DNA from: Bacillota bacterium | GTDB taxonomy: Bacteria; Bacillota; Clostridia; DUPQ01 | Assembly: GCA_036743175.1 (NCBI GenBank) | Contig: DAINQB010000002.1 | Span: forward strand, 26,757 to 90,756 | Reading direction: 5' to 3' | DNA: 64,000 bases | Shown here: positions 607 through 9,810 of the stretch, in pieces | Numbering within the stretch: the stretch's first letter is position 1 | Layout of the letters: each line of letters begins with the position of its first letter | Notes under the pieces: generated by a model | The model's input: only the letters and a program-made list of their open reading frames with translations | The model's database searches: none | Told to the model about the DNA's origin: nothing | Position numbers and translations under genes: made by a program

Positions 607-1251
607 TCAACGCCCTATAAACTCATATTCACTTATTTGTTCAAGGAAAGCAATTGCCTCATCCACTTGTTTTGGAACACAGACACTTACATATTCAGCC
701 TGGTCACCGGCTGTCTTGCTTATATGGTTGATATAGAGGTCATTTATCAGAATCCCCGGTGATTTACCTTTGATGAAACGTGAGTATCCTACCAGCATCT
801 CATTGAGCCATACTATCTGATAATTTTCCAGCTTGTTAAAATCAGGCAGGAAGTATATGTCAACGATGTCTCCTGCCGACATGCATCCTGCATTGAAATT
901 ATCTCCGTCAACCTTCAGTGCAACATACCTGTCATCCCCCCTATTCACGGAACTGTCATATACCGATGCAGCCGTAATGATCCCACCTTTTTCCACATCT
1001 CCTGTAAGTGTCATTCCAACAAGGGAATCCTTTCCCGGAGAAATCGGGGCAGAATCACCTTTATCAGTATAAATCACAAGTTCCCTGAGATATGACTCCT
1101 GAAGAACCGTACCTTTTCCATAATCATCCGTTGCAACAAATACCGTTGTTTCATTGCTCCTGGCAGCTGACTTTGCAATTGCTGCCTGTACAATTGTCAG
1201 AACAGCAGCCAGCAAAACTGCGATAATAATATAAATACTTTTTTTCATCAT
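607..1251 (-). CDS. cpaB: Flp pilus assembly protein CpaB/RcpC-like (SAF domain)
   Basis: An N-terminal signal/TM segment (MMKKSIYIIIAVLLAAVLTIVQA) is followed by a beta-rich SAF-like domain. It is the last gene of a tad-type operon and overlaps the upstream gene in an ATGA junction. Confidence 0.65.
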   Translation of the reverse strand: MMKKSIYIIIAVLLAAVLTIVQAAIAKSAARSNETTVFVATDDYGKGTVLQESYLRELVIYTDKGDSAPISPGKDSLVGMTLTGDVEKGGIITAASVYDSSVNRGDDRYVALKVDGDNFNAGCMSAGDIVDIYFLPDFNKLENYQIVWLNEMLVGYSRFIKGKSPGILINDLYINHISKTAGDQAEYVSVCVPKQVDEAIAFLEQISEYEFIGR

Positions 1252-1706: not shown

Positions 1707-2083
1707 CTGTTGACCACCTTTCTTGCAACCGTATTTCTTTCATATGACATTTCATAATCACGGCCGGTTCTTTGCAATATGCCGAACAACCCATTCTGTG
1801 TATATACCACACTTACAGAAAGCGTCATGACGGAGCCTGCCTTTGCCGAAGCAGGAGCGGATATGCTTATTTCACTGAATCCCATTGACTCAAGCTCAGT
1901 CCTCAGTTCGTTGCAGGCTGAACTTCCAAGCCCGGAATTATACTCCATTCTCATCAGGTAGTCCCTGCAGGTATCACGAAAATCCATGTTCCTTCCTATC
2001 GGGACAAAGCACTCCGTCATGTAAATGCATATGCTCATTACGATTACCAGCAAAACTGCCGATATCAAAGCTCTCTCTGCCAT
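1703..2083 (-). CDS. TadE-like/DUF4320-like pseudopilin (putative)
   Basis: A 126-aa protein with an N-terminal hydrophobic helix (ISAVLLVIVMSICIYM). Its position and size match the pseudopilins of Firmicutes tad loci. Confidence 0.4.
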   Translation of the reverse strand: MAERALISAVLLVIVMSICIYMTECFVPIGRNMDFRDTCRDYLMRMEYNSGLGSSACNELRTELESMGFSEISISAPASAKAGSVMTLSVSVVYTQNGLFGILQRTGRDYEMSYERNTVARKVVNR

Positions 2084-2301
2084 CAGCTTGCAGGAAATAT
2101 CTTCCCGATGATGCTGTCATTGACCCAGTTGTCCATCTGACCCATTATCCCCTGGGCAAAGTTCCTGAACCCCGGAATGACCACAAAGGCCGCAACAATC
2201 AGAACTGCTGCAATCCCGATTACTTCATACAGTCCGAAACCCTTTGTGTTCCTCATGTAACCCAGGTTTTTCAAAAACCATACCTTGATCTTCTTTTTCA
2301 T
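2083..2301 (-). CDS. flp: Flp/type IV-like prepilin (class III signal peptide)
   Basis: The internal start MKKKIKVWFLKNLGYMRNTKG/FGLYEVIGIAAVLIVAAFVV has a KG/F cleavage-type motif with Glu at +5 and a hydrophobic helix. ATG at 2301 has GGAGGA upstream. The mature protein is about 50 aa. Confidence 0.6.
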   Translation of the reverse strand: MKKKIKVWFLKNLGYMRNTKGFGLYEVIGIAAVLIVAAFVVIPGFRNFAQGIMGQMDNWVNDSIIGKIFPAS

Positions 2302-3091: not shown

Positions 3092-3889
3092 TTACCTTCC
3101 AGTCATGAACAGCAGGGCTGCTGCAAAAACAGTTGAAAATACAAGCAGCAGACTGTTGCCAAAAGATGTATTGAGATAAAACTCTCCTGCAGTAGGGTTG
3201 TTCAGCAAAAACCAGAATGCAGTCGCTATTACAATGATGACTGTAATGTATACAGCGCCCCTGTCCCTGACCGTTGATATCTTTCTTTTGAAAGTTTCCT
3301 CGTCTATTCTGAAGTACTGCTGCTCCATCCCGGTAAAGAGCTTATGAAGGTTGCCTCCCTTTTCAGCAGCAAACCGAATGCTTCTGCTAAGATATCTCAT
3401 GTCCTCACTGCTGCTTTCTTTTTCAAGGATTGAAAACGCCTTGATTATATCCATCCCGCCGTTTATCCTTCCAAGTGTTCTGTCAACAAGCGTTCCCAGA
3501 GGTCTTTCGATGCCTGCCTCTGACGTTTTTCTAAGACAGAACACCATGTCGTTCCTTACTGCGCTCCATTTTGACATTGTCATAAGAAAGTATGTAATTT
3601 GGCAGGACTCCTTGTTCTGCCTTGCCCGTGAAACCATGTCAAAGGCACCATATACACAAAAAGCGGGTAACACTGAAATGGATATTGCAGCAGCAGTACT
3701 TCCTGTAACCAAATTGAAAATCATATAAGATACAACGAATGCAAATAAGGAGGCCAAGTATTCATTTTTCCTGTCAAAACGAATTCCAACGCCTTTGTTT
3801 CTTCCGGTAATCTTATCCCATATATCAGAATTGATATACACTGTGTATAAAACAAACACAGCAATGAGATTAATAACAAAATAAATCAT
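3092..3889 (-). CDS. tadB: TadB-like type II secretion system F-family membrane protein
   Basis: Paralogous to the following gene, with a T2SSF-like domain and N- and C-terminal TM segments. It sits immediately downstream of the CpaF ATPase. Confidence 0.75.
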   Translation of the reverse strand: MIYFVINLIAVFVLYTVYINSDIWDKITGRNKGVGIRFDRKNEYLASLFAFVVSYMIFNLVTGSTAAAISISVLPAFCVYGAFDMVSRARQNKESCQITYFLMTMSKWSAVRNDMVFCLRKTSEAGIERPLGTLVDRTLGRINGGMDIIKAFSILEKESSSEDMRYLSRSIRFAAEKGGNLHKLFTGMEQQYFRIDEETFKRKISTVRDRGAVYITVIIVIATAFWFLLNNPTAGEFYLNTSFGNSLLLVFSTVFAAALLFMTGR

Positions 3890-5070
3890 GGCATTTCCCT
3901 TTTGTAAATATTTTCATAATCAAGTTCCCGGCCGGTTGCTCCGAATACCGAAATGATCTCCATAACCTTGAATTGCTTCAGATAAACAACATAGTCAATG
4001 CCGGAGGCAGCGGATTCCATAAGTCTTTCAACGGAATCACCGGAACCGGCTCCTGCGGCAAGTGAAACTATCCTTCCTATGGCCTCACCGGCACTCTTTG
4101 AATGAATGGTTCCAAGCATTCTATGACCGGTGCATGATGCTTTTATGAACGAGTATGCCTCTTCGCCAACCAGTTCACCGACACAGTAAGTGTCAAGGGA
4201 CATTGTAAGTCCGTCCCTGACGAGTTTTTCAAGGGGAACAGGTTTGCCGCCTTCTTCAGGCCTCTTGGTTCTTTGCTCAATGCAGAAGGCCTTCTGCGGA
4301 TATATTTCAGCATCAGACTCTACAACCAGTACTCTTTCAAGTTCAGGCAGTCTATTGAGGAATGCCCTCATAAGTGTGGTTTTGCCTGCAGCTCCTTTCC
4401 CGCAGAACAGAATGCTTTGGCCGCTCTTCGAGAGTTCCGTCAGTATTTCAAAGGCCTTTTCATCAAGCATTCCGAGCATATGCAGGTCCTCCATTGTATA
4501 GGGAGAATGTCTGTGCTTCCTTATACTTATTGCCGGACCTGATACGTTGCGTGGTGGAATGGAAACATTTATTCTAAGATGTTTTTCCAGGTCAGCGGTC
4601 CTGCAGTGGGTATCATCTTCATTCAGGAACCCTCCGCTCCTTACCGCCACAAGACGGCAGTATGTCTCAAACGCCTTCATGCTGCCGAAATCAACATCAA
4701 TCCGCGACCTGATACCTAGACGTTTTATCGTGAATTCGTTGTATCTTGTTCCATCAATGTCACTGATGTCCTCATCATCTATGTATTTTTGCAGCACTCC
4801 GTAGCCGAACATGAAGTCGAATATACCTCTGATCAACTCATCCCTGTCAACTGAAAAATACAGGTTGTCCCTGTCCAGTATCCGAACTATTTCCCTGCGA
4901 AGGCCATCATTGTCATCCTTTGATCCAAATGCATTCATGACAAAGTAAGGTTTGTCCTCTATTATTTCCGCAGTTATTTTCATTGCGAGGCTTTCCGTTG
5001 AAACCGGCATTCCCGTTTTTTTCTCAACCATGCTGCTTACAGGCTCAAAAAGGGTTTTTACCAAAGGCAT
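3886..5070 (-). CDS. cpaF: CpaF/TadA secretion ATPase (VirB11/GspE family)
   Basis: Walker A reads GKGAAGKTT and Walker B reads LVVESDAEIY. The Asp box and His box are typical of TadA/CpaF. Confidence 0.9.
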   Translation of the reverse strand: MPLVKTLFEPVSSMVEKKTGMPVSTESLAMKITAEIIEDKPYFVMNAFGSKDDNDGLRREIVRILDRDNLYFSVDRDELIRGIFDFMFGYGVLQKYIDDEDISDIDGTRYNEFTIKRLGIRSRIDVDFGSMKAFETYCRLVAVRSGGFLNEDDTHCRTADLEKHLRINVSIPPRNVSGPAISIRKHRHSPYTMEDLHMLGMLDEKAFEILTELSKSGQSILFCGKGAAGKTTLMRAFLNRLPELERVLVVESDAEIYPQKAFCIEQRTKRPEEGGKPVPLEKLVRDGLTMSLDTYCVGELVGEEAYSFIKASCTGHRMLGTIHSKSAGEAIGRIVSLAAGAGSGDSVERLMESAASGIDYVVYLKQFKVMEIISVFGATGRELDYENIYKREMP

Positions 5071-6281
5071 CAGAACACCTCCAGTTTCTTCAAAGTCCTG
5101 GTCATATATTTACCACTTCGGCTTTTGTCCGATGGAATATAGGCGTTTCCGTTCCTGACCGCAGCTGCCCTCCCGGACTCAAAAGGCATGTTTCCAAGCC
5201 ATCTGATTTCAGATGACAGCCGTGCCATTGAGGGATCGGCAGCCTTGTCACTCAATCCATATCCCATAATATTGAGTCTCTTTGTATTTACTCCCTGCCG
5301 TCTCACAAAATGCAATGTAAGTGCATTGATTTTTCTTATATCAAAAGGGCCCTTTTCAACGGTGAAGATAATCTGGTCACATACAAAAAGTGATTCGATG
5401 AATATACTGTCATATGGAAACGGATTGCAGCATAAGACAATGGCATCATAACTGTTCTTCAATCTTCCGGAAATTTTTCTTATCAATCCATCAGAGCAGC
5501 CTTCATATGCATCAAAACTGTTCAGACATGGCAGTATATCGGGTTTACCGGGCTTGGAACCTGCTATGATTCCAAATCCATCTTCAATCCCCCCCTCAAA
5601 TCCGTATTCATGGGATGATCCGCTCATCTTCTTTATTCCCATCAGCATGTCAATCCCGGGAGCAAGTAAATCAAGGTCTGCAAGGAGAGTTTTGACATTG
5701 AGTGAAATGACTGATGCAATTTCACAGGCAAGAAAGGGGTTGCCCGGTATACATATAAGATAAGGATATGATTCAGCATCCTCTCCCCCGGTTTTTTTCC
5801 TGAGGAACCTTTGCAGCTCATTGGCCATCTCACTGGCAGATGAATACCTGTCCTTTGGAAGTTTCATCAAGGCTCTGTCTATCAATGGCCACATTCCCTT
5901 GTCAATGCCTTTCATGCTCCTGTCAAAGAGCTTCCTTGTCCTTCCTGTAAGACAGTAATGCATCAACTGACCCACTGAATAGATGTCGGATTGTTCCGTG
6001 GCTTCAAATCCCGCAAGTTTTTCCGGTGCGCAAAAACCAGACGATCCGTTTTCACCGGAGGTGGAACCGAAATCAATCAATATCGCTCTGTTTTCCCTTA
6101 TCATTATGTTGGAAGGTTTTATGTCTCCATGAATCATAGGAACGGGCCTTATGGAATGCATGTTAACAAGAATCCCAAGAAGATCCAGTATATAACCCAT
6201 GATTCTGAATTCCTCAGGTTTTTCATCCCTCAGGACATCCTCAAGGGTTCTGCCCTCGATCAGTTCCATTACAACAAACAA
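5070..6281 (-). CDS. Ser/Thr protein kinase-like domain fused to a TadZ/CpaE-like MinD-fold domain (atypical P-loop). The true N-terminus probably extends to about 6509.
   Basis: Hanks kinase motifs are present: VMELIEG, HGDIKPSNIM, DFGST and CAPE. The C-terminal 200 aa has a ParA/MinD-like fold (YDAIVLCCNPFPYDSIFIESLFVCDQIIFTVEK) with a degenerate Walker A (ICIPGNPFLACEIAS). The frame is open in-frame upstream to 6509 and encodes a kinase N-lobe, but it contains no ATG, GTG or TTG. The listed ORF starts at TTG 6281. Confidence 0.65.
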   Translation of the reverse strand: MFVVMELIEGRTLEDVLRDEKPEEFRIMGYILDLLGILVNMHSIRPVPMIHGDIKPSNIMIRENRAILIDFGSTSGENGSSGFCAPEKLAGFEATEQSDIYSVGQLMHYCLTGRTRKLFDRSMKGIDKGMWPLIDRALMKLPKDRYSSASEMANELQRFLRKKTGGEDAESYPYLICIPGNPFLACEIASVISLNVKTLLADLDLLAPGIDMLMGIKKMSGSSHEYGFEGGIEDGFGIIAGSKPGKPDILPCLNSFDAYEGCSDGLIRKISGRLKNSYDAIVLCCNPFPYDSIFIESLFVCDQIIFTVEKGPFDIRKINALTLHFVRRQGVNTKRLNIMGYGLSDKAADPSMARLSSEIRWLGNMPFESGRAAAVRNGNAYIPSDKSRSGKYMTRTLKKLEVF

Positions 6282-6585
6282 GGATGATTCCGTTTCAAAG
6301 GCATCATAGATTTCCGGAATACCGGGATGCCTGAGTTTTCTCAGGGATGAATAATCATTGGCTGAATTTCTGGCATTGCCCTTGATTTCCTTGACTATTC
6401 TTTCTGCTCCGGTAATCTCATCGTATGCAATATATACAACACGATTTTTATGTGATGAAATTTCCTTTAGTATTCGATATCTGTCATTCAGCTTTTTGAT
6501 GGTTTTGCCTCACTGGTATTTTTTGTCATTTATAAATTAACATATTTTACCATTTTGCGCAATACCTCTTCAATCATTTTTTTCT

Positions 6586-6613
6586 TTGAAACATTATGCA
6601 ACTATTGTATAAT
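6586..6613 (+). promoter_or_regulatory. sigma70 promoter with extended -10 (TTGAAA-N16-TGTATAAT) for the ECF-DUF62 operon
   Basis: TTGAAA lies at 6586-6591 and TGnTATAAT at 6606-6613. This is about 85 nt upstream of the ATG at 6699, which has an AAGGAGA RBS. Confidence 0.5.
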
Positions 6614-6698
6614 GGACACAGGAATTTATTACGAAGTCATAGGAGCTGGATGTCAATGACCGTGGTAAACTCAAATTATCATGAAGGAGACTATATAA

Positions 6699-7259
6699 AT
6701 GAAAAAATTATTCAAGGTTACAACGAAGACAATTGTTGCAACAGGTCTTGGGGCAGCCCTTTTTACACTGCTGTTCATGTGGGTGAAGATACCTTCCCCG
6801 ATCCCTGAGACAAGTTTCCAGACTGCATACGGACTCGGTGGTATGTTTGCTGCTTTGTTCGGTCCCATTGCCGGTGCACTCATAGCTTTCATAGGCCACG
6901 CACTCAGTGATGCAATCCAGTATGGATCACCATGGTGGAGCTGGGTCATTGCAAGTGGAGTAGCCGGTTTTGTATTTGGTTTTGCATATCTCAAGTGCAG
7001 GGCTGAAGAGGGAATATTCACATGGAAGGATGTCCTCAATTTCAATATCATCCAGATAATAGGTAATGTAATTGCCTGGATAATTGTAGCTCCTGTCCTT
7101 GACATAGTCATCTATGCCGAACCGGTGAACCTTGTATTCACACAGGGTGCAGTTGCATGCCTTATGAACGTAATAAGTGCAGGTGTATTTGGATCATTGC
7201 TTCTTTGGGCATATTCACTTACAAGAACCAAAAAGGGAAGCCTTAAGAAAGAGGACTAG
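6699..7259 (+). CDS. ECF transporter S component (substrate-capture subunit), substrate unknown
   Basis: A 186-aa protein with six predicted TM helices. It is followed directly by ecfA-ecfA' and ecfT, which is the arrangement of a dedicated group I ECF module. Confidence 0.7.
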   Translation: MKKLFKVTTKTIVATGLGAALFTLLFMWVKIPSPIPETSFQTAYGLGGMFAALFGPIAGALIAFIGHALSDAIQYGSPWWSWVIASGVAGFVFGFAYLKCRAEEGIFTWKDVLNFNIIQIIGNVIAWIIVAPVLDIVIYAEPVNLVFTQGAVACLMNVISAGVFGSLLLWAYSLTRTKKGSLKKED

Positions 7260-7267
7260 TTTACTTA

Positions 7268-8980
7268 ATGAAAAAAGAACCGATTATCGCGTTCCGTGGG
7301 TTTTCATTCCAATACTTCAGCCAGTCTGAGCCCACACTGCACGATATAAACCTGGAAATCAATCCGGGAGAGAAAATAATGATAGCAGGGCCCAGTGGCA
7401 GCGGAAAAAGCACCCTGGGCCATTGCTTGAATGGACTTATTCCCTTTGCTTACAAAGGAGAAATTTCCGGGAGCCTGCAAGTCGGCGGAACAGAAACCCG
7501 GGATATGGATATCTTCACACTTTCAAAGACTCTTGGTACTGTTCTTCAGGATGCAGATGGTCAGTTCGTGGGACTGACCGTAGGTGAAGACATCGCTTTT
7601 TCAATGGAGAATGACAGGATACCCCAGTCAGAGATGAAGGAACGTGTAAGGAAGGTCGCAAAGATGGTTGACATGGACAGGTGGCTCACCAACTCTCCAT
7701 ATGAATTATCCGGAGGCCAGAAACAACGGACTGAGCTGGCAGGCGTCATGATAGATGACGTTGATGTGCTGCTCTTTGATGAGCCCCTTGCCAACCTTGA
7801 CCCAGCCACCGGAAGACAGGCCATTGAAATCATTGATGACATCCACAGGGAATCCGGAAAAACAATCATAATAATTGAACACAGGCTTGAGGATGTCCTC
7901 CACAGGCCCATTGACAGAATCATTGTTCTTGATGAGGGGCGGATTGCAGCCGACATGAATCCCCATGAATTGATTTCCTCAGCGATTCTCAAGGAAACCG
8001 GGATTCGTGAACCTCTTTATGTAACTGCACTGAAGTTTGCAGGTGTGAAGGTTACCCCAGAAATGAAGCCGGGACACATTACGACACTTTCCATCAATGA
8101 TGATGAAAAAGAAGCAGTAAAGCTTTGGTACCAGTCAGTGGAACCGGATTTCCCGCCGATATCCAATGACAATGTACTTGAACTGGAAGGCATTTCCTTC
8201 AGCTATGATGAAGGAGTGGAGGTTCTGCATGATGTCAGTTTTGGAATCAGGCAGGGTGAAATGCTGTCATTGGTGGGAATGAACGGAGCCGGCAAGTCCA
8301 CCATCGCAAAACTGATGTGCGGATTCGAGAAAGAAAGCAAGGGGCGGATCCTTTATATGGGAGATGATATCGCAGATGAAAGCATCAAGGAGAGAGCCGA
8401 GAGAATAGGCTATGTGATGCAAAATCCAAATCAGATGCTTTCACAGCCCATGATCTTTGATGAAGTTGCACTGGGACTTAAACTCAGGAACCTGCCTGAA
8501 GAGGAAATTGACATAAGGGTACGAAAGGCGCTGGAAATCTGCGGGTTGCTTCCCTTCATCAAATGGCCTGTATCTGCATTAAGCTACGGTCAGAAGAAAA
8601 GGGTTACCATAGCTGCAATACTCGCCCTTGACCCGAAGCTGATTATCCTGGATGAACCGACGGCAGGACAGGATTACAGACATTATACAGAAATCATGGA
8701 ATTTCTAAGGACCATAAACCATTCCGGTGTTACAGTTCTTATGATTACCCATGATATGCATCTTATGCTGGAATACACAGCAAGGTCATTGGTTGTCACT
8801 GATGGTCGTCTGATATGTGACCAGCCTGCTTCCGTTGTTCTTACTACACAGGAGGTAATTGAATCAGCCAATCTGAAGGAAACATCATTGTTCACGCTGG
8901 CACAGATGGTTGGAATAGACGACGAAACATCATTTGTACAAAGATTCATAGATTATGAAAGGCAGGTGGAGAAAAAATGA
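7268..8980 (+). CDS. ecfA: ECF transporter ATPase, fused tandem ABC domains (EcfA-EcfA')
   Basis: There are two Walker A motifs (GPSGSGKST and GMNGAGKST), two LSGGQ-type signatures (LSGGQKQR and LSYGQKKR) and two Walker B motifs. Confidence 0.9.
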   Translation: MKKEPIIAFRGFSFQYFSQSEPTLHDINLEINPGEKIMIAGPSGSGKSTLGHCLNGLIPFAYKGEISGSLQVGGTETRDMDIFTLSKTLGTVLQDADGQFVGLTVGEDIAFSMENDRIPQSEMKERVRKVAKMVDMDRWLTNSPYELSGGQKQRTELAGVMIDDVDVLLFDEPLANLDPATGRQAIEIIDDIHRESGKTIIIIEHRLEDVLHRPIDRIIVLDEGRIAADMNPHELISSAILKETGIREPLYVTALKFAGVKVTPEMKPGHITTLSINDDEKEAVKLWYQSVEPDFPPISNDNVLELEGISFSYDEGVEVLHDVSFGIRQGEMLSLVGMNGAGKSTIAKLMCGFEKESKGRILYMGDDIADESIKERAERIGYVMQNPNQMLSQPMIFDEVALGLKLRNLPEEEIDIRVRKALEICGLLPFIKWPVSALSYGQKKRVTIAAILALDPKLIILDEPTAGQDYRHYTEIMEFLRTINHSGVTVLMITHDMHLMLEYTARSLVVTDGRLICDQPASVVLTTQEVIESANLKETSLFTLAQMVGIDDETSFVQRFIDYERQVEKK

Positions 8981-9810
8981 GAACAGGCTTCTTCACCGCC
9001 CAGAAATCCGATTCACCGATACACAGGCTTTCAGGATTCACAAAGCTCATATGCTTCCTTATTCTGACCGGAGCAGTAATGTATTCATATGACCTGCGTG
9101 TGATTCTTTGTGTCATGGTATTTTCATTCATCATACTGAAGATATCAAAGATACGGTTCAGCCAGATTAAACTGATGGTGATATATGTAGTCGTATTCCT
9201 TGCCATAAATGCAATACTGACCTTTCTTTTTTCTCCGGGATACGGTACCGAAATCTATGGCACACGGCATGTCCTTTTGAAATTATTCGGAAGATATGAC
9301 ATAACTGCAGAAACGCTTTTCTTCATTGCTACTAAGTTCATGAAGTACTCTTCCGTTATCCCGCTTGGTATGATATTCCTGCTTACTACTGACCCCAGCG
9401 AGCTGGCATCTTCACTGAATGCCGTCGGAGTACATTACAAGATTGCATTTTCCTTCTCACTTACACTGAGGTACTTTCCTGATATTCAAAGGGACTACCG
9501 GGATATTTCCCAGGCACAGCAGGCAAGGGGTCTTGAGATGTCTGGTAAGGCCAGGATGTGGGACAGGTTCAAAAGGGCACTTGCAATTTTGCTGCCATTG
9601 ATTCTATCAACACTCGATAGAATAGAGACAATAACCAACGCAATGGATCTGAGGGGTTTTGGAAAACACAGGAAAAGAACGTGGTACAGCAGGAAGAGGA
9701 TGACCAGGGCTGATTTCATTGCACTTGCAGTTTCACTTATTATCCTTTCGGCAACACTTTTGGTTGCATTTTTCATTAACAATGGAAGGTTCTACAATCC
9801 CTTCATTTAG
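8977..9810 (+). CDS. ecfT: ECF transporter transmembrane component EcfT (CbiQ family)
   Basis: A polytopic membrane protein with the C-terminal coupling helices typical of EcfT. It overlaps the ecfA stop in an ATGA junction. Confidence 0.85.
   Translation: MRTGFFTAQKSDSPIHRLSGFTKLICFLILTGAVMYSYDLRVILCVMVFSFIILKISKIRFSQIKLMVIYVVVFLAINAILTFLFSPGYGTEIYGTRHVLLKLFGRYDITAETLFFIATKFMKYSSVIPLGMIFLLTTDPSELASSLNAVGVHYKIAFSFSLTLRYFPDIQRDYRDISQAQQARGLEMSGKARMWDRFKRALAILLPLILSTLDRIETITNAMDLRGFGKHRKRTWYSRKRMTRADFIALAVSLIILSATLLVAFFINNGRFYNPFI

Follow-up and report, generated by a model that had tools for sequence, protein, structure and literature searches.

How a conserved bacterial gene can be translated when the 5′ end of its reading frame offers no ATG, GTG or TTG is the question raised by a kinase gene on the minus strand of a 64,000-nucleotide stretch of Bacillota DNA (contig DAINQB010000002.1, positions 26,757 to 90,756; hereafter the window). 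By its sequence the gene is a fusion of a Hanks-type protein kinase with a MinD-like domain, in the TadZ/CpaE position at the head of a Tad-type pilus operon. Comparison of homologous loci points to translation from a conserved isoleucine codon, ATC at 6500-6498, which lies behind a Shine-Dalgarno (SD) core and would serve as a non-canonical start of the AUH type (AUA, AUC or AUU). The probability of this reading is put at about two chances in three. A non-canonical initiation codon was among the possibilities listed in the initial annotation, and it is the one favored by the arrangement found in all 16 loci compared, namely an isoleucine codon preceded by an SD core.

The kinase frame and its missing start

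Direct reading of the minus strand shows the kinase frame open from 6509 and closed directly upstream by a TGA. The codons run CAG TGA (6512-6510) GGC (6509) AAA ACC ATC (6500) AAA AAG CTG AAT GAC AGA TAT, translated as *GKTIKKLNDRYRILKEISSHKNRVVYIAYDEITGAERIVKEIKG. As the initial annotation had stated, the first ATG, GTG or TTG in this frame is the TTG at 6281-6279; the next ATG is at 6269. Start-type codons make up 6.3% of the codons of the gene, and a run of 73 consecutive codons without any has a probability of about 0.009. An alternative genetic code in which TGA is a sense codon was considered and rejected, since even with the TGA read through there is no start between the upstream TAA and the TGA. 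Three related loci (L005, L169 and L170) carry CGA in place of the TGA and still have no canonical start upstream.

The part of the frame that lies ahead of these internal codons encodes the N-lobe of the kinase, and it is translated. In the first 80 codons of the clade without canonical starts, the ratio of non-synonymous to synonymous substitution rates (dN/dS) is 0.01-0.14 where it can be estimated, with synonymous sites saturated. Third codon positions of the N-lobe are the most variable (69 of 79, vs 42 at position 1 and 28 at position 2). All five N-lobe differences from a 99% identical relative are synonymous, while over the whole gene there are 20 synonymous and 4 non-synonymous changes. 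An AlphaFold model contains the complete N-lobe with its five strands. Such strong purifying selection rules out a pseudogene or a decayed N-lobe, a possibility raised by the initial annotation that is also refuted by the recurrence of the same arrangement in many assemblies.

The isoleucine codon behind the Shine-Dalgarno core

The subfamily is small and specific: a protein search gave 13 clusters with E below 1e-97, and when 1.84 billion representatives were searched exhaustively with a profile, only 7 clusters (at 50% identity) had E below 1e-110. Scans of genomes and metagenomes with the family alignment returned mostly unrelated kinases and gave usable loci only in L005-L008 and L085. DNA was compared from 16 distinct lineages (the window with L001 and L002, then L003, L004, L005, L169, L170, L007, L085, L008, L165, L166, L172, L167, L168, L171 and L173), which come from different metagenomes and metagenome-assembled genomes and span 33-99% protein identity. 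L001 (Logan ERR11283372) and L002 (ENA ERZ18242616) were assembled separately from the window and may share one sample with each other.

The isoleucine codon opens the conserved motif IKKLNxRY in every one of the 16 loci, as ATC in eleven, ATT in three and ATA in two. In each locus it follows an SD core at a gap of 7-9 nucleotides (nt), and this core is of the GAGG type except for a single AAGG. In ten of the 16 loci the stretch from the upstream stop to IKKLNxRY contains no ATG, GTG or TTG in frame. The window, L003 and L004 have only GGC AAR ACY ATC in this stretch, and ATC is the sole near-cognate start among these four codons. In the other six loci a canonical in-frame codon is present but overlaps the SD or sits 2-3 nt past its core. 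In L165, L166, L172 and L085 the only such codon is the GTG that forms part of the SD (GAGGTG). In L167 and L168 this GAGGTG does not share the kinase frame and therefore functions as an SD and not as a start. An ATG lies 3 nt past the GAGG in L167, with the isoleucine codon 9 nt away, and 2 nt past the AAGG in L173, with the isoleucine codon (ATA) 8 nt away. Both ATGs are too close to the SD core for normal SD-directed initiation.

The gap of 7 nt in the window is typical of its other genes, in which GAGG precedes the start by 4-9 nt (once 11 nt). The codon that follows the isoleucine codon is AAA in most loci. The kinase gene has three features expected of an AUH-start gene, namely a near-cognate codon where the conserved coding region begins, an SD at a functional spacing and no usable canonical start in frame. 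The AAG found in L003-L005 was also considered as a near-cognate start and was rejected; the window has AAA at this position, and just 1 nt separates it from the SD.

In E. coli, initiation at AUA, AUC or AUU reaches 1-2% of the level of AUG, a protein initiated at AUC bears an N-terminal methionine, and the confirmed non-canonical starts are only those of infC and pcnB (bioRxiv 10.1101/063800). Values of 5-7.5% are reported for other systems, and infC begins with a conserved AUU or AUC that has a regulatory role and against which IF3 discriminates (PMC5499595). The kinase gene resembles infC and E. coli pcnB (AUU) in having an isoleucine-type near-cognate codon behind a normal SD that is conserved across orthologues without drift to AUG (PMC5499595; bioRxiv 10.1101/063800). 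As with infC, the expected result would be reduced initiation subject to IF3 discrimination. It differs from both in belonging to an unrelated family, the Hanks kinase with MinD-like fusions of clostridial Tad operons, in that there is no ground for expecting autoregulation by the product, and in that the use of the codon is read here from comparative anatomy alone.

If the ATC is the start, the initiator tRNA would read it as methionine and yield a 476-residue protein beginning Met-KKLNDRY; counted from the isoleucine codon, the open reading frame (ORF) has 474-480 codons among the relatives. A short, unstructured and A-rich leader would present the GAGG core to the ribosome at the gap noted above. 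The output would be expected to be a low, possibly IF3-sensitive level of the regulatory kinase relative to the downstream ATPase, which has a strong ribosome-binding site of its own and an ATG. That the codon is never ATG in 16 lineages suggests that low output is selected, and low output is plausible for a regulatory kinase or scaffold encoded upstream of an ATPase gene. It is possible, if doubtful, that the AUH start is kept actively, as a translational throttle or sensor that sets the level of the kinase-MinD-like organizer of a Gram-positive Tad pilus, perhaps coupled to IF3 or ppGpp status. The basis for such a role would be that these deeply diverged loci have not acquired an ATG although it is one mutation away, the scarcity of start-type codons in the N-lobe and the family-specific conserved promoter/operator block upstream.

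Several considerations weigh against initiation at the ATC. AUH starts are very rare in bacteria. The isoleucine codon is also kept in L167, L173 and P0126, which have an ATG or GTG in frame one to three codons before it, and its conservation could in part reflect a need for isoleucine in the protein and not a start function. The SD of the window clade consists of the 4-nt core only.

The N-lobe has an unusual codon content. In the window (6290-6497, minus strand) and 13 related loci, start-type codons account for 19 of 966 codons (2.0%) at ORF positions 2-70 and for 363 of 5697 (6.4%) elsewhere. ATG makes up 0.4% of the codons in this part vs 3.4% in the rest, and GTG makes up 9.5% vs 24% of the valine codons. 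The p-value of this depletion is overstated because the compared sequences are related. The depletion could have arisen because internal initiation is selected against when the start is weak, or it could be a mere matter of N-lobe composition.

An isoleucine codon kept as a start behind an SD across 33-99% identity would, if true, be a clear new case among the very few confirmed non-canonical bacterial starts. Should the throttle role also hold, the family would join infC and pcnB as a third AUH-start family with good support and deep conservation, in this case linked to pilus regulation. There is also a consequence for annotation, as standard gene callers remove about 25-100 residues from these proteins. 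Called members of the family are often truncated, with forms of 399, 377, 370, 442 and 453 amino acids (aa) that begin at an internal methionine or leucine. The 399-aa forms seem to be without the ATP-binding lobe and could be misread as pseudokinases or pseudogenes. Distant kinase-MinD-like fusions of 510-590 aa (P0014-P0020) start with a normal methionine.

Other routes into the kinase frame

An ATG at 6529-6527 opens a mini-ORF of 13 codons (MTKNTSEAKPSKS*), which ends in another frame at a TGA (6490-6488) and would lead into the kinase frame through a -1 slip or through the insertion of 1 nt after 6510. The initial annotation was right about this geometry and about the A-tracts, which it had placed at about 6490-6499 (A5) and just past the ATG (A6). 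Among the relatives the mini-ORF starts with ATG, with TTG (L004, L005 and L167) or not at all (L008), and never with an SD. Its length ranges from 6 to more than 20 codons, and it ends before the isoleucine codon in six loci (L170, L165-L168 and L172). The distance from its ATG to the isoleucine codon is 29, 31, 32 and 33 nt in L085, L165, L171 and L168, respectively, so that all three frame relations are found. Its substitutions are non-synonymous (K/I/N and N/Y). The predicted transcription start site (TSS) is at or near this ATG under either of two promoter assignments, and the simplest view of the ATG is therefore that it belongs to a conserved DNA motif where the transcript starts.

The lengths of the A-tracts are the same in the window, L001 and L002, although SNPs lie nearby and the gene as a whole shows 24 codon changes between these contigs and the window. 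At this site L003-L005 read GGCAAGACT and L004 reads ATCAATAAATTA. The tracts and the slippery A AAA AG are absent from L004, L170, L007, L008 and L171, which likewise have no start. The initiation region (92 nt) is less structured than shuffled controls, with a minimum free energy of -3.8 kcal/mol (z +1.3). RNAalifold found 0 consensus pairs in a 14-locus alignment of the upstream block, and a scan of 6300-6720 against Rfam at E<=1 gave no match. A riboswitch, a leader RNA or a frameshift stimulator is not supported.

Another unusual mode of initiation is unlikely. A 70S ribosome could re-initiate at the ATC after translating the mini-ORF as a leaderless message, or translation could start at the GTG at 6513 and then undergo a +1 shift. 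With the predicted TSS at or next to the ATG at 6529 a leaderless start would be possible, and GTG AGG (Met-Arg) is similar to the M-R with which the called proteins P0008 and P0010 begin. Re-initiation is, however, difficult to reconcile with a mini-ORF stop whose position relative to the isoleucine codon is not kept in most loci, and the TTG of the mini-ORF in L004, L005 and L167 is poor for leaderless initiation. The GTG, for its part, belongs to the SD, its frame varies between loci and no shift site is conserved.

A programmed -1 frameshift is very improbable. Translation would start at the ATG at 6529 and slip on A AAA AG (6498-6492), with GAGG in the role that the internal SD plays in dnaX. 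The product would carry the N-terminus MTKNTSEAKPSKKLNDR and the trans-frame peptide ...PSKKLNDR. The dnaX frameshift uses A AAA AAG, an upstream SD and a downstream hairpin. The window resembles it in that the upstream ORF overlaps the kinase gene in the right frame and the A-run follows the SD-like GAGG by about 9 nt, which is near the spacing in dnaX; L003, L005 and L169 retain the overlap and TCA AAA AG. In contrast to dnaX, the window has no predicted downstream structure and no X XXY YYZ heptamer in the frame of the mini-ORF, and UCA AAA AGC permits only a single P-site slip of A AAA. The A-run is gone in L004 (TCAATAAAT), and the shift site together with the overlap is lost in L004, L170, L007, L085, L008, L165-L168 and L171. 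The relatives that are unable to frameshift equally lack a canonical start, and thus frameshifting cannot be the general solution. The suggestion of a programmed or phase-variable frameshift from the mini-ORF therefore found no support; the start and length of the mini-ORF vary as described and the tracts, which are only A4-A6, do not differ from those of the 99% relative.

It is highly improbable that the real product is a truncated protein of 399-403 aa from the TTG at 6281 or the ATG at 6269, with the upstream sequence as a relic. ORF and gene callers choose these starts, and many family members have a methionine at the MELIEG position. Against this, the N-lobe combines a low dN/dS with saturated synonymous sites, and neither internal codon has an SD before it, which together argue against these codons as the only start. 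The first canonical codon in the relatives falls anywhere from codon 4 to codon 99, and no internal start is conserved. The truncated protein proposed from 6281 is not supported. A kinase without the β1-β5/αC lobe and the lysine of VAIK could not bind ATP.

A homopolymer error, phase variation or a recent frameshift pseudogene, by which one A would be missing from A4 or A5 and the true start would be the ATG at 6529, deserves almost no credence: one A added to either tract does give a continuous ORF (MTKNTSEAK(T/PS)..KKLNDRY), but all three tracts are equal in separately assembled contigs, runs of 4-6 A offer little length for slipped-strand variation, the stop-GGC-AAR-ACY-ATC layout recurs without the tracts in relatives at 50-65% identity, and the sequencing error suggested by the initial annotation is, like a pseudogene, refuted by the recurrence of the arrangement in many assemblies and by the selection on the N-lobe.

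Upstream block, protein and operon

A stretch of about 55 nt upstream of the gene, from a -35-like TTGCnn through TGGTAAtaTATGTTAAT to (A/T)TGACAAnAAATACCA, is strongly conserved. Its mean pairwise identity of 0.73 equals that of the second codon positions of the N-lobe, vs 0.43 at the third positions and 0.40 further upstream. The block appears to be a sigma-70-type promoter, either alone or together with an operator. A promoter scan picks instead the overlapping TTGAAG (6573)-18-TAAAAT (6544) with a TG. Tandem ATGkTAAT boxes 10 bp apart and the TGACAAnAAATACCA box are seen within the block (window 6514-6590, minus strand; L003 2680-2770; L005 324-414; L165 166-256; and others), and the block is probably a promoter plus a regulator-binding site. 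A AAATATGTAAA box also precedes the -35 by about 8 nt in most relatives but not in the window. In the distant member L173 (1430-1510), which has a called ATG start, a TGACAATAAAT box lies inside the promoter spacer (TTGATA-17-TAAAAT) and not downstream of the -10. A TGGTA...TACCA dyad noticed by eye was rejected as an operator; a repeat search finds the dyad only in L008 (ATGGTAAT/ATTACCAT) and the columns barely vary. Pattern searches of the window revealed no convincing second copy of the conserved block.

That the frame encodes a kinase N-lobe, as first proposed, was confirmed by the Pfam Pkinase match (PF00069; 82.8 bits against a cut-off of 31.7) and by the AlphaFold model (13-sequence alignment, mean pLDDT, the predicted local distance difference test, of 78), which matches PknB and Stk1 in Foldseek over about 260 residues including the N-lobe. 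The subfamily is invariant at the VAIK lysine, H127, G128, D129, N134, D146, F147, G148 and APE. The kinase shares with PknB and Stk1 the fold and the catalytic motifs (the lysine of IVKEI, HGDIKPxN, DFG and APE). It differs from them in having HGD and not HRD, no transmembrane or PASTA domains, a MinD-like fusion and a degenerate glycine-rich loop (EISSHKNRVVY). In the subfamily this loop (6440-6470 in the window) does not have the GxGxxG form and reads ISSHKNRVVY or ISGRKGVNVY. Catalytic competence is therefore uncertain, and ATP binding may be unusual.

The C-terminal domain of about 230 residues matches MinD in a profile-versus-PDB search, which was used because kinase matches dominate when the full model is run in Foldseek and leave it uninformative on this domain. 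Of 10 members, 8 also match Pfam AAA_31. A search for homologues of the domain, limited by its word index, returned 3 proteins only. The Walker A position is occupied by an invariant PGNPxxACE. Like TadZ/CpaE, this domain has a MinD/ParA fold, and its coding sequence directly precedes the CpaF/TadA ATPase and TadB/TadC genes. Unlike in TadZ, the N-terminal domain is a kinase and not receiver-like, and PGNPxxACE replaces the deviant Walker A lysine motif. The domain is probably a non-hydrolyzing scaffold fused to the kinase in the TadZ position. A literature search for kinase-TadZ fusions returned nothing specific. The locus thus draws attention to an uncharacterized kinase-MinD-like fusion in the TadZ position of Tad operons in Clostridia and to the strongly conserved control region upstream of it. 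The coordinates of the features are collected in Table 1.

Table 1. Features of the kinase locus, in coordinates of the window
Feature	Coordinates	Strand	Basis or comparison
Conserved promoter-like block: -35 TTGCGC (6562-6557), 17-nt spacer with TGGTAAAAT, extended -10 TGTTAATTT (6542-6534)	6534..6562	-	Alignment of loci
ATG mini-ORF MTKNTSEAKPSKS*, judged a by-product of the conserved DNA motif (A/T)TGACAAnAAATACCA at 6529-6514	6488..6529	-	Start, length and frame relation vary in relatives
A-tracts A6 (6524-6519), A4 (6506-6503) and A5 (6497-6493)	6493..6524	-	Identical in window, L001 and L002; not conserved in L003, L004, L170 and others
In-frame TGA closing the kinase frame, overlapping the SD	6510..6512	-	Direct reading; CGA in L005, L169 and L170
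SD core GAGG	6508..6511	-	GAGG(TG), GGAGG or AAGG core 7-9 nt before the isoleucine codon in all loci
ATC, proposed non-canonical (AUH) initiation codon	6498..6500	-	7 nt after GAGG; homologous codon ATC, ATT or ATA in all 16 loci
Kinase-MinD-like ORF as proposed, 476 codons plus stop	5070..6500	-	Frame and length conserved in relatives
TTG 6281 and ATG 6269, internal codons taken as start by ORF and gene callers (403- and 399-aa forms)	6267..6281	-	Neither with upstream SD; would delete the entire conserved N-lobe
Hanks-type protein kinase domain, N-lobe encoded at 6470-6270	5802..6440	-	Pfam PF00069, E 3.5e-23; Foldseek PknB/Stk1; N-lobe dN/dS 0.01-0.14
MinD/ParA-like C-terminal domain, degenerate Walker A (PGNPxxACE), TadZ/CpaE position	5073..5771	-	Profile match to PDB MinD 1g3q, E 4.5e-9; Pfam AAA_31
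CpaF/TadA-like ATPase gene, ATG overlapping the kinase stop (TAATG)	3886..5070	-	Pfam T2SSE, E 3.9e-23; own GGAGGTG SD

The pilus context proposed earlier is borne out by the genes downstream. Directly after the kinase gene come genes for a CpaF-like ATPase (T2SSE) and a TadB/C-like protein (T2SSF), and then a second membrane ORF of TadB/C size without a Pfam match and small pilin-like ORFs. The TAATG overlap is at 5068-5072, and the GGAGGTG of the cpaF-like gene lies 7 nt upstream, within the last codons of the kinase. With an SD of its own, the ATPase need not share the low translation rate expected for the kinase. One of the small ORFs (2083-2301, minus strand; 72 aa) is Flp-type prepilin-like (KG/FGLYEVIGIAAVLIV) and has no Pfam match. 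The last ORF of the operon (607-1251, minus strand) has only sub-threshold SAF and RcpC/CpaB matches. On the other side of the kinase gene is a divergent energy-coupling factor (ECF) transporter module (6699-9810, plus strand) with a riboflavin-type S component (PF07155, E 5e-45), a fused double ATP-binding cassette (ABC) ATPase and a T component. The same ECF transporter neighbor is found in L001 and partly in L003.

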